DNA of 64,000 bases from Fibrobacterota bacterium (GCA_016715065.1 JADKBN010000018.1:100280-164279), one strand, 5' to 3'; numbered from the stretch's first letter, positions 3,385 through 26,014 are shown. Notes: a model not told the origin generated them from the sequence alone. Made by a program: numbers and translations.

Positions 3385-5653
3385 TCATCGGTGCAGACCA
3401 AGTCGTGGAATCCAGGAGCCGGGCGGGCCGACCAACTGCGAAACCGGGTCTCCATCCCCAGGTCCCGTCCATCCAAAAGCACCGGATGGCGATGGCCCGG
3501 TCCCGTGTCGCAATTCCACCACCATGCGCTCGGGCTCTCCGGAAAGATCGATCGGCAGGGTCAGAACCGTGTTGGCTTCCGGCAATAGCACCTCCATGGA
3601 GGCTTGGCGAGCCACCGCGTGACAGTCCGGACGCACCGGCGGCAACGAGGGCAATCGACCGGGGTAGGTTTCCCGGTAATAGCTTCCCGACCCGACAGGG
3701 GCCACCAAAAGGGTTTCGCGGACCTGTTGATCCAGGGGATGGCAGGCGGCGTCCACCTGGAAGGTCCGGGCGGAGTCCAACTGGATCACCTGGTAAAACG
3801 AGTCGATCGGTGCGGCTTTGCCCGCTCCCGGCCATCCTGGGGCAAAAGCGGCAGAATCCGAAACATCAAGGGGGCCGCTTGCTGGCGCCCCCAAAGCTGG
3901 GGCCTGCCATCTCCGCGGGGATTGCCCACCCACCCCGACCACCCAACCCGGCGTGATGCCAATGGTCCAGGCATCGCGATGCCCAAAGCTGGTGCCGGTT
4001 TTCCAGGCCACCGGACGCCCTGCGGCGAACGCTTTCCAAGCGGCTTCTTCTTCGATGCGCCCACCGATCCGCAATGCCTTGAGCGTAAGCCAAGCGGCAC
4101 CCGGCGACAGGAATCGCTCTTCCCTCCCCGGTCCGTTCATGGCCGCCAAAAATGCCCTGTGTGCGGCCTCGAGCGAGCCGGTAGCACCTCCGCCCTGCGG
4201 TGGACCACCCACCCGAAGGAGCGAGCCGTCCTGCGTGGCTCCCAGATCCATCGCCTTGGCCACTCCTTCGTTTGCCAAGCCTGCGTACATGCCCACCAGT
4301 TCGACCAAACTCGCCTCGCCCGCCCCCAGGGCCAGGGCCAAACCGTAATCTTGGGCAGGCCGGAACAGATGCCACATCCCCGAACGCACCAACAGATCCT
4401 GAAACGGCTCGACCCCGAGCAATCTCAGTTCGCGCACCCAGGGAACATTCAACGACCGGGCCAGGGCCTGATCGGCAGCCACCAGGCCTTCGAATTTTCC
4501 GGAGGCGTTGGCGGGCCGGAAATCGCCAAACCGGGTGGGCACATCGAAAATCCATTGGCGAGGCAAAACCAGCCCCTGGTCCAACAAGAGCCCGTACAAG
4601 AAGGGCTTCACGGTGCTTCCGGGAGACCGAGGCGCCAGAGCCAGATCCACCTGCCACGCATCGCTTCCCGTTCCGCCCACGCCACCGATCCACGACCGGA
4701 TCGCCGGAGGCGCTCCTTCGCGCAGCTGCGCCACCACCACCGCCACCCCGCGAATCCCCTGGCCCCGCAGATCCTGCACCTGTTCCTTGGCCAACTGGGC
4801 CACCTGGGCCTGGAGATCGGCGTCCAGTTCGGAATGCCAACGTTTTTGCGCCCCACGGGCCTGGAACAGCTCCACCACGTGCGGCGCGATCTGGGGCAGC
4901 GCGTGGGGGGTTTGGGGCAACGGCTCCGATCGGGCGAGTTGGGCCTCCATCGAGTCGATGTCGCCGGCCACCTGCAAGCGCGACAGGATCCAATCGCGAC
5001 GCGCGCGCAGTCGGGCGGTGTCGCCTTGCGGGCGCAAGCGGGCGGGAGCGTTGGGAATGGCCGCCAACAACGCGGCCTCCCCCCACGACAGATCCTGCGA
5101 CCGTTTGCCATACCAACGCCAACTGGCCGCCTCCAGACCCACCACGTTGCCTCCGAACGGGGCGTGGGCGCAATATGCGCGCAAAATCCGCTCCTTGGGC
5201 CAAGCCGCTTCCACCCTCAGGGACAACCACACTTCCACGGCTTTGGCCCACCACGATCGGTGGGCATCCGATCCTCGTGCGCGCCGAGAAATCCGGGCAA
5301 GTTGCATGGTCAGCGTGCTGGCACCCTGCCTCCGGCCTCCGCGCGCAGATTGGACTTCGCCGAGCGGATCACAGCCAACGGGTCCACTCCGGGATGCCAC
5401 CAGAAACGCTGGTCCTCGGCTTCCAGGATGGCACGCATGAAACGGATCGGAACGGAATCGCCGGGGGAACCGCCACTGGCCGTCCGGACCGGACCGCGCC
5501 CCCAGCAATCGATCTTCGCGATCGTAGACGGCCGTCGCGAAGGCGGAGGGAACGAGTGGATCGGGAAGGGGTCACCCGAACCAGTATCCAAGCCAAAACC
5601 AGGAGGATCCCCCCCTTGGTCCATCGGCTCGACAAAACCCGTCGGATGGTCAT
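3385..5653 (-). CDS. pbpC: penicillin-binding protein 1C (bifunctional GT51 transglycosylase / transpeptidase), with at least 2 apparent frame shifts in the N-terminal part
   Basis: TM segment GGILLVLAWILV. GT51 motifs EDQRFWWHPGVD and GASTLTMQLAR. Transpeptidase motifs STVKP (SxxK) and KTGTS (KTG). The N-terminal 100 aa are spread over three frames. Confidence 0.75.
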
Positions 5654-5916
5654 CGTCGACCCATAGGTAGAAGAAAAACCCCCGCGTCAACGGCGGCGAT
5701 GCCATCGAAAGTGCAGACCGGAAAAGGGGAAAACCGGGCAGGTACCCCGCCCGGTCCAGGCCGCCTCTGAAGAGCCCCGTTCCATGTATTCTCCGGAGGC
5801 GATCTGTCCTCCCTCCAATACAACAGCCGTGCCAACCCTGCTTTCACAAGGCGCAACCCGGTTGTTCGATCTCCTGCCCGCAAAAACCGGAACCGAACGT
5901 TCCGGATAGGGACCGC

Positions 5917-7116
5917 TCAGCCCGCTTTTCCGATGGAGCCTTCGTAGACGATCTTCCAGGCTCCGTCTTCGAAGCGCCAGTACTGGCGCTTGCGCATGAG
6001 ATTGGAAAGATTGCTGGATCGGTAGTCCTGCTCGAATTCGACCACCGCCAGGTCCCGTTCTCCCGGAACCAGGAGCATGGAAAGATCAGAGGTGGAGACC
6101 TTGACCCACGACTTGGCCGCAGCGACCCGTCGCTTGTCCCGTTCCCAGCCTTCCAGATCCTGCTCACCCATCTTGAAGTCGTCGGAATAATGCGACAGGT
6201 AGCGGTCCATGTCGTTGGAGGACCAGTCTTCCGTCCATTTCTGGATCGCTCCTGCCAAAATTTGTCGCATCGAGTCCGCCTGGGAGGGATCCACCCAATC
6301 GATCGTATCGGCCAGGATCACCGGCGTACGGCCGAGTTGGAACCACTTCTGGAGGGTGTCGATGTCGTCGTTGGGCAGCACCACGCAACCGTTGGAGGCG
6401 CGCGGCGGGCGCGAGTAGGTGTCGCGGGGGGTGCCGTGGACCCAGATTCCATGGCCCTTGCGGCCCTTGCGCTGTCCCAGTCGTTGGGGTAGTCCAGCGG
6501 ATAGGCGACGTTGCCGTAGTAGGCATCCAATTTCTCTTTCTCGATCCGGGAAACCATGCTGTATACGCCCAAGGGCGTGCGCTGGTCGCCTTCGTTGGAC
6601 TTCAGGGGTCCGTTGAGCCCGATCGAAACGTAGTGGTCGCCTTCCAGCTCCACTTCCCGTCTTTTTGCCGGAACACGAACAGCCGGCTCGCGCGGGCGTC
6701 GACCACCAACACGGTGGAGGCATCCCGGGGGGGCTGCAGGAGAAATCGCGGAATCATGTCCTTGGGCGGAGTCTGCACGTACCGGCCCAGACGCACCCGG
6801 GCCTCGTCTTGCATCGCCCGAGCCTTCGGATCCTTGGAGCGGGGACCGGCGAATTTTTCCAAGCGGCCGTTTTGCGCCAGAAGGATGTCGCCGCGCACCA
6901 ATTGGGCCAGACGGAAATTGGGCTGGCGAGTCACCAGGCTGTCCGACCGCTCGAGCGCCAGATCGAGGCGTTCGGCGCGGATGGCATCGAGGGCGCACCA
7001 ACAAGGATTCGGGGCTGTCGGAAGCGACCGTCACCCGATTCTGATCCGAGGCCAGCACCCAGCTTACGCAGCACAGCCCAGAAAAACAAAGATCGCCGAA
7101 ACGAACGACGCATCAT
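5917..7116 (-). CDS. L,D-transpeptidase (YkuD domain) with C-terminal NTF2/SnoaL-like domain; signal peptide; at least 2 apparent frame shifts
   Basis: Signal MMRRSFRRSLFFWAVL. LVVDARASRLFVFRQKDG. Catalytic region HGTP...SNGCVVLPNDDIDTL. C-terminal NTF2-like domain. The start ATG overlaps the upstream stop (ATGA) with RBS GAGAGG. N-terminal, middle and C-terminal parts lie in three frames. Confidence 0.65.
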
Positions 7117-8133
7117 CCCGCCTCTCTTTCCGATACGATCTTCCACTCCTTTCCTTTCTTTGTCAAGACAATGCGTTTACGCAAAACAAGCTTCGCTTCA
7201 TCGGTTTGGTACAACTGTTTGTAAGTGATCTCGACCTTGTCGGGTCCCGTCAACTTGACCTGCGGCGAAACCATCTCCACCTTGATGGCCTTGGGCGCCG
7301 AAATCCGCTCTCGCCTGCGCGCTTCCCACGCCTGGCGAGACAGTTTTTCCGGAAGGACAAATTGAGCATCGTAAAAGCCCAGGTAGGCATCCACGTCCTG
7401 TGCCGACCAAGCGGCCGCCCATGCGCGAAGGGTGCGAAGCGCTGCGACCTCGGGAGTCTCGGTGGGGCGGAAAAGTGGCCCAACGGGCACAGGGTCGACT
7501 TCCGGCGGCGGCGGCAACGGAGCAACCGGAACCTTTTCCGGGAGGGTGAGGCGAGGTGTCTCGACAGACGCGCTTTCCTTGGTTTGTGCGTCGGAGCTTT
7601 CGACCATGGCGACCCTTCCGCTGGAGAGGAGGGAATCGCGGATCCGGGTCAGATCGTCGATTTCCTGGCGGGCGCGGGTGAGGGCACGGGCAAGGCCGTC
7701 GGAATCCGTCGATGGCTTCGTTCGGGGAGGTTTGGACAGTTGCTTTTGCAAATCCAATTGCAAAGCTGGCAGTTTCGAGGGTGTGCCAAAAGCGCTGTCG
7801 TAGGCAAGTCTGGCCATCCGGGAGCGAAGCTTTTCCAGGATTGGTCGCCACCGATTGGACGTCGCGTCGCACCGCCAATGCCCTGGCCAAACTACGCTGG
7901 GAGCCAAACAAGTCGCCCTGCGCAGCTTCCAAGGCGGCGCGATTGTTCCAAGCTTCCAAGCAGGAGGAATCCTTTTCCGTCACCGCCCGGAAAACTCCCA
8001 GCGCTTCGGAGGTCCGCCCTTTTGCGGCAAACTCCACACCTTGCTGAAACAAGGCAGCCGGACACTCCGCCAAACCATTGACGGCTAGAGCGCAAAGAAA
8101 CGCCCACCATCGTCCGAAATTCCGTCGCCGATC
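7113..8133 (-). CDS. secreted TPR-like / NTF2(SnoaL)-like domain protein, one apparent frame shift near 7870
   Basis: Signal MDRRRNFGRWWAFLCALAVNG. TPR-like helices, Pro-rich linker. C-terminal domain VAALRTLRAWAAAWSAQDVDAYLGFYD, paralogous to the L,D-transpeptidase C-terminus. Translationally coupled to the next gene. Confidence 0.45.
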
Positions 8134-8217: not shown

Positions 8218-8646
8218 CTAGATCGCCGCGTCTTCGATCAATGGGACCGCACGGATCAAAAGGTGCGAGGCGAGCCCGCGATCAGGCCCCTGGAAGTGGC
8301 TGAGGAGCCAATCTTTCAGGAAATACATCTCGTTCATGGACATGACGGTTCGGCCATCCCGGATCGAGCGTCGCAGCTCGCGGATTTGGTCCAGAAGTCG
8401 TTCATGCTCGCCTTTGTGCCCCTCGGCGGCGGGAAACGACGTCGCGTCCATGAACTTCTCTTCGGTGGCGAAATGGAACTGGGTGAACTCCAGGACTTCG
8501 CCGAGCGCCTCGACGATGTTGGCCGAGCCTCTTCCCACCCGGATCAAGTCGTAGATCCCGTTGATCAGATCAAACAAACGACGATGCTGATTGTCGATTT
8601 CTTCGACCTGGGTCAGGTACTCGTCCTTCCAGCGCAAAAGCGACAT
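8218..8646 (-). CDS. bacteriohemerythrin-like protein
   Basis: 142 aa. Hemerythrin iron-ligand pattern: IDNQH, HFATEE, HKGEH, DWLLSH. Confidence 0.8.
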   Translation of the reverse strand: MSLLRWKDEYLTQVEEIDNQHRRLFDLINGIYDLIRVGRGSANIVEALGEVLEFTQFHFATEEKFMDATSFPAAEGHKGEHERLLDQIRELRRSIRDGRTVMSMNEMYFLKDWLLSHFQGPDRGLASHLLIRAVPLIEDAAI

Positions 8647-8729
8647 CGCATCCTCCCTGGAGCCGAGCTCCCTGTCCAGGAGCGGCTCGCCTTGCCACAA
8701 ATATAGGACCTCCGACTCCTCCGGAGAGT

Positions 8730-10080
8730 CTATCGATTCGATCGTTCCTCGCGCAACTGTTCGATCTGTTTTTGCTGCTGGTCCAGGCGCTTTTCCTGGG
8801 CGATGGCATGCAAGGTCAATTCTTCCACCTTCTTCAGGAGAACCATGTTCATGGCGGCCACATCCACCCCGCTTGCGGTCATCTCCGCTGCGGAGGGAAC
8901 CTCCGGCAGGTGTTTGTTGGCCTTGGTGAAAGCCTCGATTTCGGCCAAGGGTGCCAACGTGTATTCGGGCTCGAACACGTAATCGGCGGGCGTGGCGCCG
9001 GGAGGGTGGTGAGCTTGCCGGTGATGCGCACATCACCAAGACTTGCCGAGCCTGCCGCGATGGCGGCCGCGGAGCTGATGGTCCCCGTGACATCGAGGTT
9101 CCCGTACACGGTCGCGCCGCCTTCCCGAACCAGGAACTTCAGGGCCGAGTCTCCCTGGGAAATCCCGAATCCATCGGAAGCGACGTTGCTGCTTCGCATG
9201 TTTCCGATCTGCCAGTGGGATCCGTACCAGGCAAAATCCAGGGCGTTTCGGATCGAGGAGAAGCTGTTGCCCAGGCTCTTCATCCGGCCGTTGGGATTGA
9301 TTTTGGTGGTGATGTCGTTGGCCTCGCTGCCTCTCATCACCACCGCATCGACTTTCATGTAGCGGGTGGTGTCGAACATTCCCGTGTGCAGCACGGCCCG
9401 CTCCGCCACACCATCGCTGTAGACGGGAGCACCCTCGCTGAGGCGCACACCCAAATATTTCCCGTGCGCGCGGAGGTAGCTTGCCGAGCCGTTGCGCAGC
9501 CAAGCCACCGAATAGTTCCCTCCGGAAGGCGTCCCGACATCGTCTCCGTAGATCGCGCTCGCCAGGCCATCCGGGTACAATGTCAGCCTGCTGCCGGAAA
9601 CCACCAGGGTGTCGGCTTGCAACATGGGAGATTTGAACGCGCCAACAGAAAGTGTCTTCTCGATCTTGAGATCGCCCTGTACGGTGCCACCTTTGATGCT
9701 CAGCGGCACGAAGCCCAGCGCGTCCTGCTTGGCTTTGAGGGTGTCGCGAAGGCCAGACAAGTTCGCCGGCGTCAAGGCTCCCTTGATGCCCCCTGCCAAG
9801 GTCGCGCTGTCGGTCTTCTGTTTTTGCTTCAACTGGTCCAAGCCGCTTTGGTCCGCCTTTGCGGACTGCAGTTGGCCGACCGTGGCCAGGACCGACTTCA
9901 GTGCTCCGTCGGTCGCCTCCAGGCTGGGTTTGGTGGCCCGATTTTGGATGGCTGTGTCAAGGCGTGTGAAATTTTCGTTCACGTCGCGGGCGATGGCTGG
10001 CTTGTTGGCTTCGAACTGGATGAGCCCTGTCGCCCCGGTCATCGCAGGAACAACAAGTAACGTGAGGTGGAATCTGGTCA
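8730..10080 (-). CDS. secreted tail-fibre/fibritin-like protein, paralogue 1 (C-terminal domain displaced by a 1-nt C-run deletion near 8990)
   Basis: Signal MTRFHLTLLVVPAMTG. N-terminal motif IQFEANKPAIARDVNENFTRLDTAIQN, coiled coil, variable beta-rich centre, GDVRITGKLTT. The C-terminal YxFEPEYTLAPLAEIEAFTKANKHLPEVPSAAEM...LLKKVEELTLHAIAQ lies in the 8730..8978 frame. Restoring one C in ACCACCC(C)TCC rejoins the two frames. Confidence 0.7.
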
Positions 10081-10116
10081 TCTGGTGCATGCTCCTCGGA
10101 TGGGAACTCAAAACGG

Positions 10117-11604
10117 TTAGCGTGATTCGTTCTGCTTGGCGATGGCTTTTTCAAGGTCGCGCAAACGAGTTTCGAAGGACATTTTCTGCTCATGAATCGC
10201 TTTTTCCTGGGCGATGGCATGCAAGGTCAGCTCTTCCACCTTTTTCAGGAGAACCATGTTCATCGAAGCCACATCGACGCCTTGGGTGGTCATCTCCGCT
10301 GCGGAAGGAACCTCCGGAAGGTGTTTGTTGGCCTTGGTGAAGGCTTCGATTTCGGCCAAGGGCGCAAGCCTGTAGTCCGGTTCGAACACGTAGTCGGCGG
10401 GTGTGGCGCCAGGAGGGGTGGTGAGCTTTCCGGTGATGCGCAGGTCGCCCGTGATTGTACCGCCTGCGGAGGTCATCCACTGCCGCCAAGTCGACCAGTC
10501 CGTCGCGTTCCACTTGGTCCGGGTCCGGATATCACCGGAATGCGAGAAGTAGATCTGGGTCTTCTTTTCGCCGCTGCCCATGACCACGAGATCCCCATAG
10601 TCGTAAACTCCTGTCGGACCGTTGTAATTGCCCGGATGAATGGAATACCCGCCGATCGTATTCAACAAGGTCCAATCCGCAGGAGCATCTCCCCGTTCGA
10701 TGAATGTGGTGGCGAACGGGAAATTCCCTGTGTGGTAGACTGCCCGTTCCGCTTTGCCATCACCGAACACCGGCGCATCCGCAGCCGCGCGGATCGCGAA
10801 ATATTGGTCTGCTGTGCGGAGGAAGGTCGCCGAACCATCCCGCTTCCAGGCCACGGAATAATTGCCAGGACCGTGCGGACCGGACTTGTCCCCGTAGATC
10901 GCGCCATGCTCGCCGTCCGGGTACATTTCGAATTGACCACCCGCAACCGCCAGAGTATCGAACCCTCCGCGCAACGCGCTCACATTCCCGCCGGTTTGGA
11001 AGCCCCCCGCGGACACAGCCCCACCCACCGTCAGCGCCTTGGAAATCGACAACTCGCCAGAAATTGTCCCTCCCGCGCTGTTGAGCGGAGCGAATCCGAG
11101 GCTGGCCTGTTTCCCCGCCAATGCAGATTCTGTCTGCCGCTTGAAAAGACCGAAGGTCATCGTGTCAGCCTTGAGCTTCAGGGTGTCGCGGATACCGGAA
11201 AGGTTGCCGGAGGTCAGCGCGCCTTTGAGCGTGGTGTTCACGGACTCGAGGTCCGACTTGTGTTTGCGAGCAAGGTCCGCCAAAGTCCCGGTGTCGGCCT
11301 TGGCCCCAAGAGCCTTTTCCATCGCGCTCTGATCGACTTTGCTTGTCTGGATCTGTCCGATGGTCGCTTGGACTCCCTTGAGGGCGGCGTCGGTGGCTTT
11401 CAAGGATGCATCTGTCGCTTTCAGAGAAGCGGCTACGTCCTCCTGGACGGACTTGACCGCACGGTTCTGGATGGCCGTATCCAGGCGCATGAAGTTCTCG
11501 TTCACGTCACGAGCGATCGCGGCTTTCCCCGACTCGAATTGGATGAGCTCGGTGGAAAACCCAAGAGCGGGGATCAAGACGGACAACATTACGGGCTGGC
11601 GCAT
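10117..11604 (-). CDS. secreted tail-fibre/fibritin-like protein, paralogue 2
   Basis: Signal MRQPVMLSVLIPALG. IQFESGKAAIARDVNENFMRLDTAIQN. Repeated LKATDA coiled coil. Central region distinct from paralogues 1 and 3. GDLRITGKLTTPPGATPADYVFEPDYRLAPLAEIEAFTKANKHLPEVPSAAEM C-terminal domain. Confidence 0.75.
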   Translation of the reverse strand: MRQPVMLSVLIPALGFSTELIQFESGKAAIARDVNENFMRLDTAIQNRAVKSVQEDVAASLKATDASLKATDAALKGVQATIGQIQTSKVDQSAMEKALGAKADTGTLADLARKHKSDLESVNTTLKGALTSGNLSGIRDTLKLKADTMTFGLFKRQTESALAGKQASLGFAPLNSAGGTISGELSISKALTVGGAVSAGGFQTGGNVSALRGGFDTLAVAGGQFEMYPDGEHGAIYGDKSGPHGPGNYSVAWKRDGSATFLRTADQYFAIRAAADAPVFGDGKAERAVYHTGNFPFATTFIERGDAPADWTLLNTIGGYSIHPGNYNGPTGVYDYGDLVVMGSGEKKTQIYFSHSGDIRTRTKWNATDWSTWRQWMTSAGGTITGDLRITGKLTTPPGATPADYVFEPDYRLAPLAEIEAFTKANKHLPEVPSAAEMTTQGVDVASMNMVLLKKVEELTLHAIAQEKAIHEQKMSFETRLRDLEKAIAKQNESR

Positions 11605-11699
11605 GGAAGAACCTCTGAATGGAGAATCGGCGTTCTGCCTCACAAAGTAATTCCACCCCGTCCCGATTCTCGGTTCGAATCCACCGGGCAACGCAGCCC

Positions 11700-13226
11700 C
11701 TACTCGCCTCGCATCGCCTCCAGCCGATCCAATCGGGCTTTCTGGTCGGCCAAATCGGACCGCTGCGCTTCAAGCACCTTCTGCTGCTCGATCGCATGCA
11801 AGGTCAGCTCCTCCACCTTCTTCAGGAGGATCATGTTCATCCCGGCGACATCGACCCCGTTTTTCGTCATTTCCGACGCCGAAGGAACCTCCGGCAGGTG
11901 CTTGTTGGCTTTGGTGAAAGCTTCGATTTCCGCCAACGACGCGAGATCGTAGTCAGGCTCGAACACGTAGTCGGCGGGTGTGGCGCCGGGAGGGGTGGTG
12001 AGCTTACCGGTGATGCGCAGGTCGCCCATCGATGCTGTCGCCGCGGCAAATTTCCCGGTTGGCAAAACCAGGTCGCCAAAGATCCTGGTCTCCGTCAATC
12101 CGACGAGAACCCGCAAGTCGGAATTTCCGTTGGTGATCCCAAATCCCGCACTCGGCTCCGCACCCGACCGGACGTTTCCAATCTGCCAATGGCTGTCGTA
12201 CCAGCGGAAGTCCAAGGCGTGACGAATCGAGGCCAACAGCCCCGCCGAGGTCTCCAACGTCGAATTGTCGTTGAAAACCGTGGTGATCTCGTTGGCCTCG
12301 CTGCCCGCGAAAACGGGCCCCTTCGTGGTCACGAAGGCGGCGGGATCCAGGTTCCCCGAGTGCCAAAGCTCCTTCCCGTCCAGTGTCGGCGCATGGAAGC
12401 TCGCCTCGGGAAGATCCAGAATGTGCGCTGCCGAGCGAAGGCGGAGACCGAAATACCCGGCCACCTGCATTTGGGATCCAACTTCGAGACTTGGTGTACT
12501 GCTCAGGGAAGGAATGTTGGATCGACCCATGCCGTACCAGGTGCCTTCGTCGACCAGATCGCCCACCGTCGAATTGAAAAACACCCTGGAGAGGTGTGCC
12601 GCATCCCCGGTGCGCACGAGCTTGGGAGATTCGCTCGCATCCAGCTTCAGGTCCAGCATCGCGACGGTAGGCAACCCCGCGACGGTGGATTGAATGTTGC
12701 CGATCTGTCCCGCCACTTCGCCGCTGTCGGACTTCACCTTCGCCTGGAAAGTGGAGAAGGTCGATGCCTCTAGCTTGGAGGCGATGTTGGCGTTCGTGGG
12801 GACGCCGGAAATCAACGCTGCGGTCGAAGCGCTGTCTTGCTTCACCTTGGATTTGAATTCCACCAATGCCGAAAGGTCCGCCTTGCTTCCCAAGCCAGAC
12901 GAAATCTGTCCAACCTTGCCGGATTGGGACAGGCTGTCCACGCGGAGCTTCGCCTGGTAGCCGGCGAACGCCGCGCTATCGCGGCGGATTCGAGCGGAGA
13001 TCGCCGCAAGACTGTCCCGCAAGGCGCCTTCGGCCTTGGTGTTGACCAGGGCCGCGAGAGCGTCCATGCCGGCCTGGCTCGCTTTCGTCTGCATCGCGGA
13101 GTCCAGTTGACGGAAATTGCTGTTGATTTCCAAGGCGCGAGCAGGCTGACCTGGCTTAAATTCCGTCAACCCTGCCGCGAAACTCAGCACCGATCCAGCC
13201 AAACAGGTCACGATGGCAGACTTCAC
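11700..13226 (-). CDS. secreted tail-fibre/fibritin-like protein, paralogue 3
   Basis: GTG start with AAGGAG RBS. Signal KSAIVTCLAGSVLSFAAG. ALEINSNFRQLDSAMQ. Shares IRHALDFRWYDSHWQIGNVRS and the C-terminal YVFEPDYDLASLAEIEAFTKANKHLPEVPSASEM domain with paralogue 1. Confidence 0.75.
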   Translation of the reverse strand: MKSAIVTCLAGSVLSFAAGLTEFKPGQPARALEINSNFRQLDSAMQTKASQAGMDALAALVNTKAEGALRDSLAAISARIRRDSAAFAGYQAKLRVDSLSQSGKVGQISSGLGSKADLSALVEFKSKVKQDSASTAALISGVPTNANIASKLEASTFSTFQAKVKSDSGEVAGQIGNIQSTVAGLPTVAMLDLKLDASESPKLVRTGDAAHLSRVFFNSTVGDLVDEGTWYGMGRSNIPSLSSTPSLEVGSQMQVAGYFGLRLRSAAHILDLPEASFHAPTLDGKELWHSGNLDPAAFVTTKGPVFAGSEANEITTVFNDNSTLETSAGLLASIRHALDFRWYDSHWQIGNVRSGAEPSAGFGITNGNSDLRVLVGLTETRIFGDLVLPTGKFAAATASMGDLRITGKLTTPPGATPADYVFEPDYDLASLAEIEAFTKANKHLPEVPSASEMTKNGVDVAGMNMILLKKVEELTLHAIEQQKVLEAQRSDLADQKARLDRLEAMRGE

Positions 13227-13280
13227 GGTCTTACTCCTTCTATTGGGGGATTCATGGAACGCGATCGGATCCGATAGATA

Positions 13281-13308
13281 GAAAAAAGGCACCCGAAACC
13301 GGGTGCCC
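13281..13308 (-). terminator. intrinsic terminator (GC hairpin plus T-run) between the typA repeats and tail-fibre paralogue 3
   Basis: Minus-strand sequence GGCACCCGGTTTCGGGTGCC followed by TTTTTTC. Confidence 0.6.
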
Positions 13309-13346
13309 TGTTCTTCCAGCACGATGACCGCGCGATGGAACCGGTG

Positions 13347-13577
13347 CTACGCCTCTTCGACGTTTTTCGAACGCGACTGGCGCTTCGCACATCTTCGTCT
13401 CCATCTTGCGATGGAGACTGCGCGCGCGGCAGTCGCCACGGCCCTTACGCCTCTTCGACGTTTTTCGAACGCGACTGGCGCTTCGCACATCTTCGTCTCC
13501 ATCTTGCGATGGAGACTGCGCGCGCGGCAGTCGCCACGGCCCTTACGCCTCTTCGACGTTTTTCGAACGCGACTGGC
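13347..13577. repeat. 98-bp direct tandem repeat (2 full copies plus the partial copy that is the real typA 3' end)
   Basis: Period 98 by two landmark alignments. Each unit carries the last 12 typA codons ([12 protein letters not shown]), the TAA stop and a CTCCATC-TTGC-GATGGAG hairpin. Copies at 13347-13444 and 13445-13542, partial at 13543-13577. Confidence 0.9.
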
Positions 13578-15372
13578 GCTTGCGCTCGTTCTCGTCGAGG
13601 TACATCTTGCGGATGCGGATGGATTCGGGGGTCATCTCGACGAGTTCGTCGGTGTTGATCCAGCTGATCGCGTCTTCCAAGGTCATGGGGCGGGGTGGCG
13701 TGAGAACGATGTTTTCGTCCGTGGCCGTGGTGCGCATGTTGGTGAGCTGCTTGCCCTTGACCAGATTCACGATCAGGTCGTCTTCGCGGCAGTGTTCGCC
13801 GAGGATCATGCCGGTGTAGACCGAAGTGCCCGGATGGATGAACAACACGCCGCGATCCTGCATCTTGAACATGGAGAATCCGGTGGTCTCGCCCTCTTCC
13901 TTCGAGATGAGCGCGCCTTCCTTGCGTTCGGCGATCTCGCCCTTGATCGGCTCGTAGCCCTTGAACAAGGTCTGCATCACCGCGTAGCCGCGAGTGAGGG
14001 ACAACAACTTGGAACGCAGGCCGATGAGTCCGCGCGACGGGATGTGGTAGACGATATTCGTCGCGTTGCCGTGCGTTTCCAGGTGGACCATGTCGCCGCG
14101 GCGGCTGCCCAATTCCTGGATGACGGGGCCCTGGTGCTCGGTGGGGACGTCGACGGTGAAGATCTCGACGGGCTCGCAGACCTCGCCGTCGACGTTCTTC
14201 AGGACCACTTGTGGCCGACCCACCGCGAACTCGTAGCCTTCGCGACGCATCTTCTCGATCAGGATGGACAGGTGCAGCACGCCGCGACCGGCCACCAGGA
14301 ACTTGGACGGGTCCGCCTGCTGGGTCACGTGCAGAGCCACGTCGCCAAGCTGTTCGCGACGCAATCTGTCACCGATCTGGGTGGAGGTGACGAACTTGCC
14401 TTCGCGCCCGCAGAAGGGAGAGTCGTTGACCTGGAAAATCATGCTGATGGTGGGAGGATCCACCGTGATGCGCGGCTGGATGACGGGATTTTCGGGATCC
14501 GTCACCGTGTCGCCGAGCTGGAAATCGGAAACGCCGGCCAACTGGACGATCTGGCCGGGACCCACATCGGGCTGTTCGGTGAGCTTGAGTCCGATGTACG
14601 CGTAGATCTTGGTGATGCGCGTGCGCTTGACGGTGCCGTCGGGCTGCGAAAGTCCAACGGTCTGGTTCACCTTGAGGGTGCCCTGCTTCAGGCGGCCGAT
14701 GGCCAGACGTCCCAGGAATTCCGAGTAGTCCAGCGAGCTGATCAGCATCGAGAAGGGCGCGTCGGTCTCTCCGGTCGGGGGCGGGATCTTGTCGACGATC
14801 ATGTCGAACAGCGGAGTGAAGTCGGAGTCCGCGTGTTCCATTTCCTTGCGGCAGGTCCCGTTGCGGGCCGCGGCGAAGATGTGCGGGAAGTCCAACTGCT
14901 GGTCGGTGGCGCCCAGTTCCACGAACAGGTCGAAGACCTTGTCCAGGGATCCGTGCGGATCGCAACCGTCGCGGTCGATCTTGTTTACGACAACGATTGG
15001 CTGGAGGTTCAGCTCGAGCGCCTTTTGCAGGACAAATCGCGTCTGGGCCATGGGGCCGTCGAACGCGTCCACCACCAGAAGCACTCCGTCCACCGTGGAG
15101 AGCACCCGTTCCACCTGGCCGCCGAAGTCGGCGTGTCCAGGGGTGTCCACGATGTTGATGAAGTTCCCTTTGTAGGAAATCGACGTGTTCTTGGACAAGA
15201 TCGTGATCCCGCGCTCGCGCTCGAGATCGTTGTTGTCCATGACCCGCTCGGCGACTTCCTGGTTTTCGCGGAAAGCTCCACCCTGGCGGAGAAGTTGGTC
15301 GACGAGCGTGGTCTTGCCGTGGTCGACGTGCGCGATGATGGCGACGTTTCTGATTTTGCTGGATTCGATCAT
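13543..15372 (-). CDS. typA: translational GTPase TypA/BipA
   Basis: [18 protein letters not shown]1 motif, [18 protein letters not shown]-like domains. C-terminus [13 protein letters not shown]. Confidence 0.9.
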
Positions 15373-15651
15373 TTGGGGCGCAAGGTAGAACCCTGAGGCC
15401 GTGGTGGGGAGATCATTCATTGCAATCTGGTCACAGCGGCGAACACAAAGATGGACGAAACAGTCCACTGTTATGCATCTGCTCCTCTAGGTGCGATTTC
15501 AGAACCCGTGATGGCCGCGTCCGTCCTGGATTAGATTGCAGGATGCGAATTGGTTTCACCCGACCTGGGAATCTTGGCAGACACCTATCATTTTTCCCGC
15601 TCGGGAATCAGAAACCAGCCACCATCAGACAATGCCAAAAAGGACCGTTCC

Positions 15652-19314: not shown

Positions 19315-22300
19315 TCAGAACTTGTATTGGAGTGACGCCAGGCCCTGGATTTCGTTGGTGATGACCATGGCTCCGTTGTTGTCTTCCTGCGCCTTGCGTT
19401 CCGTCCGCTTGTAGCTCGCATCAAAATTGGCGACCAGCCGTGACGTGAAGTTGTAGGACGCATTGGATCCACCGTAAACGGTAGTAACCTCGTCGAGAGT
19501 CTGGGCCTCGACTGGCTCGAAGGTGAGAGGATCGACCGCTTCCTTTTCTTTCCAGGATTTGGTCCAGCCCGCCTTGAAGGTGACCACCAGGTCGTTGTCC
19601 AGCTTCAAAAACCACCGGAAAAGCTGGATTCCGCGCTTGGTCTGGAAGCGGTAGGTAGCGGTACCTTCGTTGCCCATCTCGTAGCTGCGATCCTCGGAGG
19701 TCCCGCCAAACTCGAAGCACAGGTCCCTGGTCACCGTGGGGTCGCTGTAATACGCCGGCAAGCCCATCGATTCCGGGCAGACTCCTTCCGGCCTGGCTCC
19801 ATCCGCGCCGAGCGGGCGCTTGAGGTTGTTGACCGACCGGGTCCTTGCGAAATTGGTTCGATCCTCGAAGCTCCAATTTCCTTTGGTTTTCATTTGCAGT
19901 CCGACCAACGGCTGCCATCGCCAGGTGTAGTTGTCCACGTCCGCGTTCAACAAATGGGGGTGGATTTGTTGAGAGAGCTCCCAGGTCGTACTGTGGTTGA
20001 CCGTGGCGCTTTCGAACCATTTCACCAAAAAAGGCACCCGACCCGCAAAATTGGCCAGATCGGCGGAAACCGTGATTTGGGGCCAGGTCTTGGTGGTATC
20101 GACATTCCAGGGGGACATCCAGCGCTCGTCCCAGGAAATCTGGTAGGCGAGGCTCGGGTGGACCGAAAGGAGCAGACCGGGAATGGTGAAGTCCGAGTTC
20201 CCACTGACACGGTAGCTTCGGGTATTGACCATCGAGCTGCGATCGACGTAGGCATCTTGGGGGCTGGAGATGGTTTCCGTGGAGTTGTCTCTTGGGTAAG
20301 TGGACGGATGATCCAGCCGAGAGGGCTGGTATTGACCCAGTCCAGATTTGGAGCGCGAGCCGGTCACGATGTCGAGAGGGCCTCGGATGAAATCGGCATC
20401 GCCCAACCCCATCTGCCAACGCAAAAGGCTGCCGGCCTCCAGTCGCTCCACCGCCGAGGAATAACCGAGGGACTGGCGTACACCGCTGATACGATCGTCC
20501 ACGGAATATTCCACGCCAAAGCCCGTCCAGCGCCAACGGTCCAATCCCTGCCGGACCTCGTCGAGGGATTTGCCCCAGGCATCCGGCAAGACTCCGCGGA
20601 CCGATTGGAGGATGGCCGGCACATCCAAACGCAAGCTCGATCGAAAATTGTCCGAATGGTCGTGACGCCAGTACTGGATCAGGACCGAATCCCCGGCCAC
20701 CACGCGCTGGAGGGGAGATTCGCGGTTGGCCGAAGCGTTGGACTGGAAAGAGCCCGTGGTGGACAGCCAAGGCAGGATCCGTGGATTGAGTTCGATGCCA
20801 AATTGCACGGAGCGGGCGCCTTCGTTGCGCAAAAACCCAAAACCCTGGCGCTTGCTCTCGCCGCCTTCTTCGGAGGGCGAGCGGACGCGGGTGGTGTCCC
20901 AGTCGAAGATATATGGCATCGCGTCGGCCAGGCCCGTGGAAGGATCGAAACGCTGCGCTTCTTCCCGGCGGTCCCAGAGGCGACTGGATCGTTCCCCCAT
21001 GGTCAGGCGCAGGAAATCGAACAACTGCCAGTCACCGTTGATGCCATGCGTCAAGCTTGCTCGGGCATCGTGGGAGGAATACCGGGGGAGGCTGTCCTTG
21101 TCTGGCGCCAAGATCGAATGGACGCCTTCCAGGTAATCCAGGTCGCCCAGCGTGGAGGTGATGGTGGCAGGCCAAGGCTGGATCGTGAAGTTTTCCACCA
21201 GACTGGGCACCCACTTGCTCTTCGCCTCCCCGAAGGGCCTCCATTGGGGAGGCGGAGCCGGACTGAAATCGTAGTCCAGCCGCAGATTGTGCGCCCAGGT
21301 GGTATCGCGGCGATCCGGCCCCAACGTGCCTTGCTCGGTGTAGGTCCAATTGACCTTGGGCCGGGCGAAGAACGCATTGGTGAGGATGGGCTTCAGACCG
21401 GACTCCTCGTCGCGTCCCCTGGACCACGACGACCCGAGAGATCTGGTGACCACCAAGGTCTGGTAGGCGCGTGAAGTGCGATTGGCGATGTCGGCCGAAT
21501 CACGGCGCATGTCGGAGTCCCACCAGTCGGAGGTGATGTCGGAAAGTCCGTCCCGCGAGAGCGCCTGGTCTGAGCCCGGCCGGGCCCAAGGGCGATCCAC
21601 GAGACCGGTGATGGTGAACGACACCGGAAGTTGCGCCCGCCACGATTCCGGCAGGAATTTCTGCAGGAACAGACTGGTGGTGGCCGTGGCGCGCGCAGAC
21701 GATTTCTGACTGGACAGCTCCGGTTGTTTCTGCCCCATGGGCACGAAATCGCCGCCTCGGTATTCGGTGGAGGCGGAAACGTCCATCAGGTCCGCGAAGT
21801 TCATCTGGGCCGATCCTCGCAAGGCGGTGCCGATGCCCTGGTGAGGATCTTCCAGCCGCAAATCGTTCACCCAAAGTTCGCCGGTGGCGATCTCGTCCTG
21901 GGCGGCGGTTTCCGTGTTGTTGGGCCTCACCCACATCCGCATCCATTTGACCTGCGAAACGCTCGGGTCGCCATAGACGGAAATGGTGTCCTTGCGCGAA
22001 TCCGACCCGGAATGGAGTTCGATCCCCAATTCCTGGCGGTAGATCGAATCGCGCCCTTTTCCCTGGGCGTCGCGTTTGGTCTTCAAGGACGTCAGAGTGT
22101 TCAGAGGGATGCGGATCTGGTTTTGCTCCCAGTTGCCAGGCATGGCCTCCGCTCGCTGCTGGGCGGAGCAATCGACGCCACCGCAAGCGAGCGGAACCGG
22201 ATTGAAGGAGTATTCGTAATACGGCGAGGCCGGATTGGTGGGATCCCCCGAACCGAACTGGACCCCGAACCGGACGGGCTTATCTCCAGTGCGCAGCACA

Positions 22301-25300
22301 CTGGGGACTTCGTGGTAGACCAGCATCACCAGGTTCTTGTACAGCGTGAAGTCGCGTGGGGATTCGTAGTAGCGAAGGGCCTTGCCAGAATCCGCCACGA
22401 TTCTGCCGATCCCGATCCCGCGGTGGAGGTTGGCGTAGGCCAACCGCAACGATTGCTCGCTCTGGAGCGCCTCCGAAGAAGGATCCTTGACCTGGGGCAC
22501 TCCCCAGGCCTTGTAACGGCCTTGGTCGGTGTTGTTTCCGATCACCGACACGTTCAGACGGGAACTGTCGGGAGTCACGATCTTGGTGAGCGAGGTCCAG
22601 TTGGCCGAATAAGTGGCGTCTACCGTGTCGATGTCGTCGTTGGCTGAAAGCCGTTCGCTGCCCTTCCATTGGTTTCCCACCATGGCCATGCGGGCGATCT
22701 GGACCTTGTCCTCCTGCTGGTTGGCTCCGGTGGAAGGGGTGAGCCCGCCGAACCAGACGCGCACGGCCCGCACCTCGCTCCAGTTGGCGCCGCGACCTTT
22801 CTTTTTGAACACCTCGTCCAAGGGAATTCGATACAGCCGCCAGGCGTTGCCCAGCGCCTGGAAAGGCGTGCGATTCTTGCCATTGAGAACAATGCGGAAC
22901 CGGTCGAAGCTGTTGGCGAGGGCCAAGGAACCATCGCGATCGAGATCCTCCGAATCGAAATACGTGTTGGCGCCTCCGCCCAGATCCGTATTGTTGTTTT
23001 CCGCCCCGTTCACGGCACGATCGGGGTTGGCGGAGGTCCGGTCGGCATGGTAGTTGTCGCCGGCGGGATCCACGTACCCTGCGCTGATCAAAGTATCCTG
23101 GCAGTTGCGGCCAAAACATTCCCACCCTCGTCTGGTTTCCAGCGAGTCTTTCATTCCGTCGATGCCGAAGTCGTTTTGTGGCACGCCCGTGGGCAGGCCG
23201 TTGAGAAGATCTTCACCATCCAGCGCACCGTTGGGGGCTTCCCCATTGACGGACAAGTCTTCGGACATCTGTCCGATGTCCAGGAACAATTCGCCTCCGC
23301 CGGAAGGTTTGGCGACCACTTCCAGATAACGCGTGTTGGAGTTGTCCCGCCAGCTGGAAGGCATGGCGCGCATGATCCCGCCCCAGGACATTCCCCTGCC
23401 CGATCGATCGTTGGGACGCAGCCGAAGTTGCAGAACCGACATGCGGGCCGGAGTCGAGCTGCCATCGTCGTGCTGAGGATAGACATCGCGCATCAACACG
23501 CGCGCATTGGAAGACCACGTCATTTCGCCCTGGTGGCGATAATCCAACGTGTCTTCGAAGTCCACATCCGTGGAAACACCCCCCGGAGGGCTGGCCTGCG
23601 ACCAGGAATAGGAAGAGATGGGAAGTTCGTTGGTCACTTGCGATCCTTCGAAGTCCTCCACCAACGCATACCCGTCCAAGCTGGGATCCGTCCAGCTCTG
23701 CGCACCCTCCAGCTCCAATCGCCATTTGGATTCGGCCGTGGTCTTCACCAACGGGACCTTGTTGACCAATTCCGTCAACGACTCCGATTCTCCCGTCAGG
23801 CGAAGGTTCGCTCCCCACAACATGGCCTGGTTTCCTTCGCGCGCCAGCTGCGGTCGCAAGTCGGTCACGCTTTCCTTGCGGTACAGGAAGGTGCCGCCCA
23901 AAACGGATTCCTTGCTGATTTGCGACAACTGGTATTCCAATCGAGCGCCGAACACGGAGCGATTTTCCAACGAGAAGAACGGTGTGCAGGAAAAGTCCAC
24001 CTGGATATCCGCCGAGGCGGCCCGGGCCCGGTCCGAAAGCAAGGTGATGGTGCCGGTCTGGTACTGGACATCGTAGTCCTTGCCCTTCTCCAGCCGAGTG
24101 GAGCCGTTGAGCGTCAGGACTTCGGATCCGGAGAGGATGTCCACGCAATTGGACCCACTGACGCTGGCGTAATCGCGGGAGCCGATCTTGATCGAATCGG
24201 ATGCGGATTTGGAGGTGATTTCGATGCCGAAACGAGGAGAAAGGCCTGGCAGCGCCGTTCGGGTGGAATCGTAGATACCCGCGTTTCCAAATTTTCGAAA
24301 CGGCTCCAACCCAGGCAAATTGAGGGTCCGCGCTCCCCAGTCGAAGATGTCGGTGTTGTCGACCAGCAGGTTACCGGATTCATCGGCGATCCCGAACGTT
24401 TTCGCCCACTCCCGCCCGGTGGAATCGACCGAATTGTCGCCCGTGCGAACTCCAGACAGGTCCAAAATCCGGATCTTCAGGTTACGCCGGTCCCGCTCTC
24501 CGATCGAAGGCAACCGGTAGCGATTGCGTAGTTGCAAGGAGCGCAACGCGGCATCTTCATGATCGTCCGCATATAGCAACACAAGATCTGTCGGGGTTCC
24601 GGTATGTGCGCCCTCTCCAGGGGCCCATTTGACCGCCAATGCACTGCCGTTGCCCACCAGGTCCGGGCGACGAAGACGAAGCACACCGCCCTGATAACCC
24701 CATTCCGTGTTGGCATCCAACAGTCTCCAGCGGCCAGGCAAGGTGACAAAACCTGCACGCCCTAGGCTATCCCAGCTGGTGGCCTTCGCAGGTCTTACCT
24801 GTTTGGCCCATTCCGGATGCGCCCGCAGGTCTTGAGGGAGGATTCGTTGATACACCTCCAAGCCATTGGGAGGAGCCAGTTTTTCGTTGTTGCCGTTGTT
24901 GGCGATCCAACGTTTGCGATGCTCGAAACTCAAGAAAAAATCCGTTCCCAACACGAGGTCGCGGTCGCGAAGAAGCGTGGTGTTGTCGCGAGCCGAGCGG
25001 CCCACGTGCTGCTTTTGCTGCTCGCCTTTTTGGGTGCCTCCGACCATGGTCAGATCCAGATCGCCAAACCGCAGCCGGGCTTTCAGACCCAATACACCCG
25101 TTGCAGCTTCTGAGTATCCGGTAAGACTGGATCCCGGCAGGGCGAGCTGGATCAGACCGGCTTCCGCTTCCTGGAGAATGTCGTCTTCCGTATCCTCCGG
25201 CTTTTCGCCAGCATACCGAATCTGCAAGGCCTGGTTCTGGGTGGCTCCAAACCCTTCCTGGTTCCAGGTCAGGCTGATGGAGACGAACTTCCCAATGTTG

Positions 25301-25896: not shown

Positions 25897-26014
25897 CATG
25901 AATCGATTTCGCACCGTAGCGGACAAAGTACCCTTTTGGTGAACGACCGGAAACCTCTCGCAGGCCATGAATCGTTCTGGAGCTTTTTAGAACCCGGTTT
26001 TCAGGTCAAGATGC

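Follow-up and report, generated by a model that had tools for sequence, protein, structure and literature searches.

Three paralogous, putatively exported proteins built of phage tail-fibre modules in a Fibrobacterota genome

Introduction

In Bdellovibrio, the mosaic adhesive trimer (MAT) proteins are exported by Sec and displayed on the cell surface as phage-like trimeric fibres, in which a conserved N-terminus is combined with tips that are swapped (Caulton et al. 2024, PMC10769870); they are the closest described concept to the cassette of three genes that we analyse here. They have a beta-rich N-terminal domain of ~130 amino acids (aa) and beta-prism/beta-helix shafts, 13 of 21 end in an S74 domain, and they are tied to predation (PMC10769870). 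The cassette lies in a window of 64,000 nucleotides (nt) from a Fibrobacterota bacterium (GCA_016715065.1 JADKBN010000018.1:100280-164279), in the region 8218-13346, and it consists of three co-directional paralogous genes, P1, P2 and P3, all on the minus strand. An earlier note on this DNA had described them as secreted tail-fibre- or fibritin-like paralogues; open reading frame (ORF) calls agree with its placement of the three co-directional genes and of the flanking features, and add the strand, which it had not given.

Like the MAT fibres, the cassette is chromosomal and lies outside any prophage, and its products form a multi-gene family in which a predicted signal peptide and a conserved N-terminal part are followed by a long fibre. 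As in the MATs, C-terminal modules related to phage adhesins are swapped between paralogues, so that a leader is combined with variable tips. In contrast, the conserved N-terminal motif (N-motif) of the cassette proteins spans only ~30 aa and is followed by a helix from residue 31, where MATs have their ~130-aa beta domain, and all three proteins end in a C-terminal domain (CTD) that is not S74. Fibrobacterota are not known to be predators. The likeness is set by published description rather than by sequence comparison, and we do not file the cassette as a member of the MAT family.

We report here that P1, P2 and P3 are old paralogues of mosaic structure whose modules are related to those of phage and pyocin fibres. 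The reading towards which we lean is that they are Sec-exported, probably trimeric fibres with alternative phage-derived binding modules, that is, adhesin- or lectin-like recognition proteins diversified by duplication and recombination.

Results

Architecture of the three proteins

Alignment of P1, P2 and P3 reveals a basic-hydrophobic leader (17-19 aa) and the N-motif, then a segment rich in Ala, Lys and Asp, a body of beta type and, at the C-terminus, ~100 aa that are nearly identical in the three. In the AlphaFold2 model of P2, with a mean predicted local distance difference test (pLDDT) score of 73.7, helices occupy residues 31-168 and are followed by beta domains at ~224-290 (pLDDT 80-94) and 338-377, and by a helical CTD. 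The alignment and the model bear out the plan proposed in the earlier note for all three proteins, with a leader, a shared N-terminal motif, a coiled-coil or helical stalk, a beta-rich centre and a conserved C-terminal domain. The features of the cassette are the following (HMM, hidden Markov model).

8730-10081, minus strand: P1 (paralogue 1), 450 aa after repair of a 1-nt deletion
9003-9006, minus strand: site of the P1 frameshift, a C-run that reads CCC here and CCCC in a near-identical contig, at the body/CTD junction
9038-9361, minus strand: central block of P1, of the same type as that of P3, IRNALDFAWYGSHWQIGN…
10117-11604, minus strand: P2 (paralogue 2), 495 aa, from the ORF and the AlphaFold2 secondary-structure map; in order, leader, N-motif, helical stalk (aa 31-168), beta domain (aa ~224-290), knob (aa ~293-385) and CTD
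10450-10728, minus strand: knob domain of P2, related to the tail-fibre knob of R-type pyocin / phage P2 gpH type
10117-10449, minus strand: CTD of P2, from the alignment, the repeat family, the CTD HMM and the CTD-only AlphaFold2 model
11700-13226, minus strand: P3 (paralogue 3), 508 aa, with a GTG start after GAAGGAG; the near-identical contig L002 also has this 508-aa gene; in order, leader (aa 1-19), N-motif LTEFKPGQPARALEINSNFRQLD, helical stalk, beta body, T4-fibre-like block and CTD
12027-12356, minus strand: central block of P3, …SEANEITT…IRHALDFRWYDSHWQIGNVRS…GFGIT…, homologous to a mid-fibre segment of the T4-like distal subunit (tblastn)
11700-12026, minus strand: CTD of P3, GDLRITGKLTTPPGATPADYVFEPDY…KHLPEVPSA…LLKKVEELTLHAI and a coiled-coil tail, from the alignment, repeat family D1 and the CTD HMM match

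Tail-fibre modules in the centres

Scans of P1, P2 and P3 against Pfam, NCBIfam, PHROGs and PADLOC returned no significant match, and phmmer searches of P2 and of a profile of the P1/P3 centre against PDB sequences returned none either. The knob of P2 aligns with a sister type, labelled 'pyocin-knob', that is found in homologues; the NCBI label 'pyocin knob domain' on one of these, P0030, was not reproduced with the NCBIfam or Pfam copies at hand. Compared with solved fibres, a profile of the knob class including P2 (A4) matched the R2 pyocin (6cl6/6ct8) with E 2.6e-6 and the R1 pyocin (6cl5) with E 4e-3. The P2-type sequences alone ranked the same three chains at the top, with E 3.8e-3 (6cl6), 9.6e-3 (6cl5) and up to 2.2e-2, and a Foldseek search with the model gave 6cl5/6cl6 as best matches, at an E of only 9e-3. 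In addition, tblastn of the knob found the GpH tail fibre of an Acinetobacter phage (E 2e-4). The profile similarity to solved knob domains holds for P2 only. This knob and its 'pyocin-knob' sister type share the signature of the R-pyocin and phage P2 gpH knobs (6cl5, 6cl6, 6ct8), and the knob takes the same near-distal position in the fibre. R-pyocin fibres differ in that they have no signal peptide, are attached to a baseplate, use a separate chaperone and end in a foot domain, whereas in the cassette the CTD comes after the knob and a tail cluster is lacking.

In 34 records of T4-like Acinetobacter phages, tblastn matched the centre of P1 and P3 to the distal subunit of the long tail fibre, at 36-39% identity and with E down to 6e-10. 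The P1/P3-type block corresponds to residues ~470-575, in the mid-shaft of a 1227-aa distal subunit that is encoded within the usual phage fibre gene set. The identity with this gp37-class subunit of Acinetobacter myophages holds over ~100 aa, but the segment that is mid-shaft in the 1227-aa phage protein stands, in P1 and P3, just before the CTD of a putatively exported protein of 450-508 aa.

Judged by these profile and tblastn matches, both body types have true tail-fibre homologues. The relation of the P2 knob to R-pyocin fibres and of the P1/P3 centre to the T4-like distal subunit, together with the presence of the CTD on phage fibres (see below), supports the proposal that these proteins are built of tail-fibre modules. 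The term 'fibritin-like', also used in the earlier note, is only an analogy drawn from the helical stalk; no sequence or fold match to any solved structure was found. Like T4 fibritin, the cassette proteins would start with a piece for attachment, continue in a coiled coil of alpha-helical segments and close with a small folding unit at the C-terminus. Unlike in fibritin, beta modules lie between the stalk and the CTD, and in place of the foldon, a beta-hairpin unit, there is a helical CTD.

Old paralogues with exchanged modules

The CTD-coding DNA is only 84-88% identical among P1, P2 and P3, with a synonymous divergence (dS) of 0.50-0.68 and a ratio of non-synonymous to synonymous divergence (dN/dS) of 0.09-0.12. 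The high dS and the dN/dS of about 0.1 indicate that the three genes are old paralogues with the CTD under purifying selection, and the dS values rule out recent gene conversion as well as assembly duplicates of one gene, a possibility that had been raised with the original description. The cassette is a small operon-like array of three old paralogues.

To compare the centres we used protein identity in 40-aa windows. Between P1 and P2, identity is 45-70% up to residue 240, falls to 15-17% in the following 80 aa and reaches 95% in the CTD, whereas P1 and P3 are 22-47% identical in front and reach 60% in the IRxALDFxWYxSHWQIGN block. The central block is thus common to P1 and P3 and the centre of P2 is different, as previously described. 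A related metagenome-assembled genome (MAG), GCA_016718115.1 (L001), has four paralogues against the three found here, including an orthologue of P2 at 72% identity, which provides an instance of copy-number variation between related genomes. P3 and the paralogue R3 of this MAG are 22-50% identical over 280 aa and then 77-85% over the next 120 aa; R2 and R3, both from the MAG, are 85-92% identical at residues 80-200 and 5-22% from residue 280. A similarity between the N-terminal half of P3 and R1 was first suspected, and the windowed identity gives it no support. These sharp identity breaks between paralogues indicate that the centres differ by recombinational shuffling of modules and not by hypermutation, so that the expression 'hypervariable centres' is misleading: whole modules are exchanged, and no scattered hypermutation is seen. 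Among homologues, several unrelated body types alternate between the same N-motif and the same CTD. The number of paralogues and the windowed identities agree with the suggestion that the layout is that of receptor-binding proteins diversified by duplication, to which module exchange has to be added.

The C-terminal domain

The CTD of P2, modelled on its own with AlphaFold2 (pLDDT 88), consists of two short helices (34-44 and 53-59) and a long helix of ~50 residues (63-112). By reading of the sequence, the long helix has a regular 3-4 hydrophobic spacing and is heptad-patterned. The domain is amphipathic and charged, and the residues conserved in its alignment are D, Y, V, F, H, L, P, S, A, K, E and T. 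Our literature search gave nothing relevant on its sequence motifs, or on tail-fibre proteins in Fibrobacterota or Bacteroidota.

The CTD had been likened to the intramolecular-chaperone (S74) domain of phage tail fibres, even though the SDxRxK motif had not been found. The latter observation agrees with our alignment, in which the SDxxxK Ser-Lys catalytic motif is absent. The likeness itself is unsupported, with no match to Pfam PF13884 (S74) at E <= 1, a probability of 0.27% in hhalign against four solved PDB S74 domains (a small template profile of four sequences), and no S74 similarity in the fold comparison. What the two domains have in common is best described as an analogy of position. 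The S74 domain, as in endosialidase, T5 pb1 and MYRF, is also C-terminal after a fibrous body, ends in a long helix and is present on phage fibres and cellular proteins, but the CTD shares with it neither the SDxxxK motif nor a Pfam match, nor any profile or fold similarity.

In a few proteins (P0121-P0127, e.g. P0123 of 677 aa), two or three complete copies of the CTD are present in one chain, each after a short GxxVGIGT-type segment.

A large, array-forming family shared with phage fibres

The CTD family has no entry in Pfam, NCBIfam or PHROGs. A CTD profile nevertheless retrieved 37,086 representative clusters (50% identity level) at E <= 1e-3, 34,142 of them at E <= 1e-10, and a scan of one genome per species located the domain in at least 587 places. 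Its carriers include Fibrobacterota, Bacteroidota (Pedobacter, Sphingobacterium, Chitinophaga, Flavobacterium, Cytophagales, Marinilabilia and others), Balneolaceae, Verrucomicrobiota, Bryobacterales, and some Rhodobacterales and Hyphomicrobiales. With the CTD HMM applied to fetched loci, co-directional tandem arrays proved to be frequent and to have up to 13 genes: 13 in 12 kb in Arcticibacter (L078), nine each in Flavobacterium (L087) and Thalassococcus (L094), and seven each in L032, L040, L042, L058, L065, L070 and L091, from various taxa. The array members that we inspected mostly have signal-peptide-like leaders and variable beta-rich bodies with the motif GNVGIGT..P..KL.V.G.

A tblastn search with the CTD found no match in 50,697 GenBank phage records. 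Thirteen IMG/VR contigs carry a variant of the CTD at the end of leaderless fibrous proteins, whose lengths range from 336 aa (an ORF that starts at a contig end) to 3052 aa, and in one of the contigs the CTD gene directly follows a baseplate wedge gene (phrog_219, E 4.5e-26). On the evidence of these profile matches, the CTD is common to phage fibres and to a far larger set of putatively exported cellular proteins. In L005 (IMGVR_UViG_3300036553_000069), a 246-aa CTD protein with a signal peptide stands beside a 905-aa protein with a C-terminus like a sorting tail of the type IX secretion system (T9SS). This 'viral' contig is probably bacterial DNA, and therefore not all 13 IMG/VR matches are phage fibres.

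Among the 79 loci compared, no accessory gene is universally conserved beside the arrays. Genes resembling those of the type II secretion system (T2SS) are found beside the arrays in 7 of the 79, all in Bacteroidota. The recurring flanking genes of these seven Bacteroidota arrays lie at 6302-9986 in L058, 7285-10972 in L080 and 6264-9424 in L056, where they abut the array in the same orientation, and are also present in L070, L040, L064 and L077. Among the genes in the flank of L058 are those of T2SS protein F (PF00482, E 1e-44) and of a protein with the N-terminal methylation motif of pseudopilins (PF07963). Such pseudopilin/GspF-type genes may provide the export route of the CTD family. Giant secreted proteins with DUF6443 (E 6e-47), RHS repeats or PKD domains lie beside the arrays in ~14 of the 79 genome loci, for example at 340-4752 in L051, 36-2132 in L080 and 6315-10763 in L076, with ~11 further loci.

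Leaders and N-terminal motif

The N-motif is found at the predicted mature N-terminus, as LIQFE.xK.AIARDVNENF.RLDTAIQNRA in P1 and P2 and in a diverged form in P3. It is common to 76-97 of 120 aligned homologues, whose named members are mostly Fibrobacterota. The strict pattern is present in 76 of the 120, with its conserved Phe at a median of 22 residues from the start; K/R lies within the first eight residues in 62 of these 76, and the median Kyte-Doolittle value of the hydrophobic core is 2.28. In the AlphaFold2 prediction for P2, residues 1-17 have a pLDDT below 50 and are left unmodelled. Judged by simple rules (a basic and hydrophobic leader), the leaders of P1, P2 and P3 resemble Sec signals, from which we infer that the proteins are exported. 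tblastn of the N-motif of the Fibrobacterota proteins against phage records gave no match.

The three proteins gave no Pfam or NCBIfam match to a YadA-type beta-barrel anchor or to a T9SS C-terminal sorting domain, and their CTD is predicted to be helical. They are thus not assigned to the trimeric autotransporter adhesins or to the T9SS cargo.

Genomic context

Among the scanned ORFs of the window we found no phage tail, baseplate, sheath or assembly-chaperone family, no type VI secretion system (T6SS) family and no reverse transcriptase, in agreement with the earlier note for tail, baseplate and reverse-transcriptase genes, and no tail, baseplate or fibre-assembly genes were found in the related Fibrobacterota loci L001-L004. 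Outside the cassette the window is of housekeeping type; the genes identified include those of SprA, RNase E/G, aminotransferases, MutL, HisRS, an MCP, AsmA, TonB-dependent receptors, two-component proteins and a T2SSE ATPase. In other Fibrobacterota, tandem pairs of CTD genes stand in unrelated housekeeping contexts. Two secretion-related genes of the window are not adjacent to the cassette, namely that of SprA, the T9SS translocon (PF14349, via syntenic loci), at 19315-25968, and that of the type II/IV secretion (T2SSE) ATPase (PF00437, E 2.5e-46) at 61483-62931.

The P1, P2 and P3 products also differ from phage or tailocin fibres in two respects: tail or baseplate genes are not co-encoded in the scanned window ORFs or in L001-L004, and the rule-based leaders do not fit leaderless cytoplasmic assembly. 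The repeats of the region are restricted to the CTD, the N-motif, one 51-nt intragenic match and the typA repeat described below; there is no pair of template and variable repeats, as would be expected of a diversity-generating retroelement.

The features that border the cassette are the following.

8218-8640, minus strand: bacteriohemerythrin gene, 140 aa, 89 nt downstream of P1
13286-13309, minus strand: strong intrinsic terminator with a 10-bp stem and a T-run, which terminates transcription of typA 60 nt ahead of the P3 start
13348-13581, no strand assigned: 98-bp perfect tandem repeat, 2.4 copies, a boundary feature outside the cassette

The intergenic gaps are 95 nt between P3 and P2, 35 nt between P2 and P1, and 89 nt between P1 and the hemerythrin gene. 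The latter assignment, already made in the earlier note, is confirmed by PF01814 (E 2.5e-15, 57.5 bits, cut-off 25.3) and NF033749 (E 2.6e-34, 118 bits, cut-off 84), so that the HHE cation-binding domain of a bacteriohemerythrin scores above the curated cut-off. The gene may be co-transcribed with the cassette, and it holds the same position in L001 and L002. A hemerythrin gene is also present in L018 (MAG JBDKGS010000279.1), a third Fibrobacterota genome with a CTD gene, and the pairing of the two genes may be more than local synteny. In GCA_016718115.1 the order bipA-[cassette]-hemerythrin-Cds6_C-YkuD-PBP1C is kept.

On the upstream side, the intrinsic terminator and the typA repeats are where they had been described, and typA/bipA itself is at 13543-15468. 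The 98-bp repeat unit comprises the last ~36 nt of the typA/bipA coding sequence and 62 nt downstream, including the hairpin TCTCCATCgcaaGATGGAGA, and has one copy fewer in the 99%-identical contig L002.

The frameshift in P1

In the window, P1 is split by a C4-to-C3 deletion at ~9003 into ORFs at 8879-10081 (400 aa, without the CTD) and 8730-8978 (82 aa, the CTD). The gene had been described as one frame at 8730-10080: its location holds, with the end at 10081, whereas the single open frame does not. The ENA contig L002, which is 99% identical, has an intact 450-aa P1 that is identical to the repaired translation. Over ~3.5-13.5 kb the window and L002 differ by 19 indels of one or two nt (~3470-7840 and 13483 noted), most of them in mononucleotide runs, and the stretch ~3470-7840 and 13483 of the window appears to be indel-prone. 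Since L002 is intact and the indels of the window fall mostly in mononucleotide runs, the frameshift is probably a sequencing or consensus error; a programmed frameshift or a pseudogene was considered and judged unlikely for the near-identical intact contig and the indel-prone window. In this stretch the genes of Cds6_C, YkuD and PBP1C are fragmented or shifted; L002 has intact Cds6_C and YkuD genes but a split PBP1C gene.

In GCA_016718115.1 a different paralogue is also broken by a 1-nt deletion (L001, 12740-12900), ~25 nt upstream of the position equivalent to that in P1. The 1-nt breaks within ~25 nt of the body/CTD junction in two genomes could be either an artefact of long-read polishing in a repeated segment or an on/off switching of the CTD.

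Discussion

Five modules can be recognised in the proposed fibres. A cleavable leader would be followed by the ~30-aa mature N-motif, which would form the proximal end and dock to the cell or to a partner, and then by a segmented alpha-helical stalk of variable length. Next would come one or two beta-rich binding modules from the phage tail-fibre repertoire, namely the pyocin/gpH knob in P2 and the T4 gp37-type block in P1 and P3, and finally the CTD as a folding, oligomerisation or docking unit. Sec would take the proteins across the inner membrane, the stalk and the CTD would bring them together, probably as homotrimers, and different binding modules would be presented outside the cell, with a specificity varied by duplication and by recombination between paralogues.

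Several points weigh against this picture. The CTD has no detectable relative among solved structures, by a 45-sequence profile against the PDB and by fold comparison, and its role is a guess from its position and conservation. The internal copies present in a few proteins do not fit a strictly terminal cap. The signal-peptide calls come from simple rules and not from a trained predictor such as SignalP. Finally, no route for crossing the outer membrane is evident near the cassette, and a periplasmic location is also compatible with the data.

Such a location is assumed by one of the alternatives, in which P1-P3 are periplasmic or envelope-structural coiled-coil proteins whose phage-like domains bind peptidoglycan or envelope glycans. 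The Sec leader combined with no recognisable outer-membrane export signal or anchor would suit this role, as would the cell-wall genes that adjoin the cassette (PBP1C, the YkuD L,D-transpeptidase and Cds6_C). We consider it unlikely, as other Fibrobacterota loci have different neighbours, the swapping of modules and the variation in copy number suggest changing external ligands, and the operons that some Bacteroidota arrays form with T2SS/type IV filament genes point to export.

It is likewise improbable that these are secreted antagonistic or toxin-associated proteins, bacteriocin-like or RHS-accessory, with binding modules that target bacteria and the CTD as the effector or delivery part. 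A variable binding part with a conserved end and tandem diversification recalls polymorphic toxin and bacteriocin loci, and the giant DUF6443/RHS/PKD proteins beside ~14 of the 79 loci, in Bacteroidota arrays, speak in the same direction. However, with gaps of 95, 35 and 89 nt, the paralogues are neither separated nor followed by genes of immunity size, the window has no RHS gene, and the amphipathic, charged CTD matches no toxin or enzyme family. The CTD also caps ordinary phage tail fibres, where a toxin role makes little sense.

Cassettes of alternative fibres are known in phages and tailocins, and all recognisable modules of P1-P3 have homologues in phage or pyocin fibres, with the CTD itself present on true phage fibres. 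The three genes could on this account supply alternative receptor-binding fibres to a tailocin, an extracellular contractile injection system (eCIS) or a prophage particle encoded elsewhere in the genome. We regard this as very unlikely: the Sec-type leaders are unfit for cytoplasmic assembly, while the CTD proteins of phages have none, the N-motif of Fibrobacterota has no phage match, and no tail, baseplate, sheath or assembly-chaperone family is present in the scanned window ORFs or in the four related Fibrobacterota loci. The Sec-like leaders and the housekeeping context thus argue against P1-P3 being parts of a phage, a prophage or a tailocin. For the same reasons (leaders, no tail or baseplate family, relatives in housekeeping contexts) the domesticated tailocin fibre set, one of three options in the earlier note, is unlikely, and an exported cell-surface fibre or adhesin is the best fit of the three. 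That the cassette is the target of a diversity-generating retroelement or another hypermutation system, as the conserved ends and divergent centres might suggest, is scarcely credible given that the scanned ORFs contain no reverse transcriptase and the region no template/variable repeat pair, and that whole modules with sharp boundaries are replaced in paralogues that are old by their dS of 0.50-0.68.

With exported recognition fibres as the preferred reading of the cassette, the most interesting point lies outside the window: the CTD marks a very large, unannotated and array-forming family, some Bacteroidota members of which are in operons with pseudopilin and GspF genes. As a tentative and rather doubtful extension, the CTD might mark a very large class of exported, arrayed recognition proteins in Bacteroidota, Fibrobacterota, Balneolaceae, Verrucomicrobiota and some Alphaproteobacteria, whose modules would be traded with phage fibres. 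The CTD would then be a new folding, oligomerisation or docking unit, and the Fibrobacterota cassette a lineage-specific form with its own N-terminal anchor and helical stalk. Because some Bacteroidota arrays share an operon with pseudopilin and GspF genes, the CTD might perhaps be recognised by a machine similar to the T2SS or to type IV filaments.

The significance of these findings is a matter of inference. Naming the CTD and solving its structure would annotate very many 'hypothetical proteins', and the domain may yield a new trimerisation or chaperone tag for protein engineering. The sharing of modules with phage fibres implies a common host-virus pool of binding domains, which bears on the evolution of phage host range. 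So far, the predator Bdellovibrio is the described case of exported chromosomal fibres with receptor-binding modules reused from phages, and the cassette suggests that the principle is widespread among Fibrobacterota and Bacteroidota of free-living habit, both major degraders of polymers and particles.

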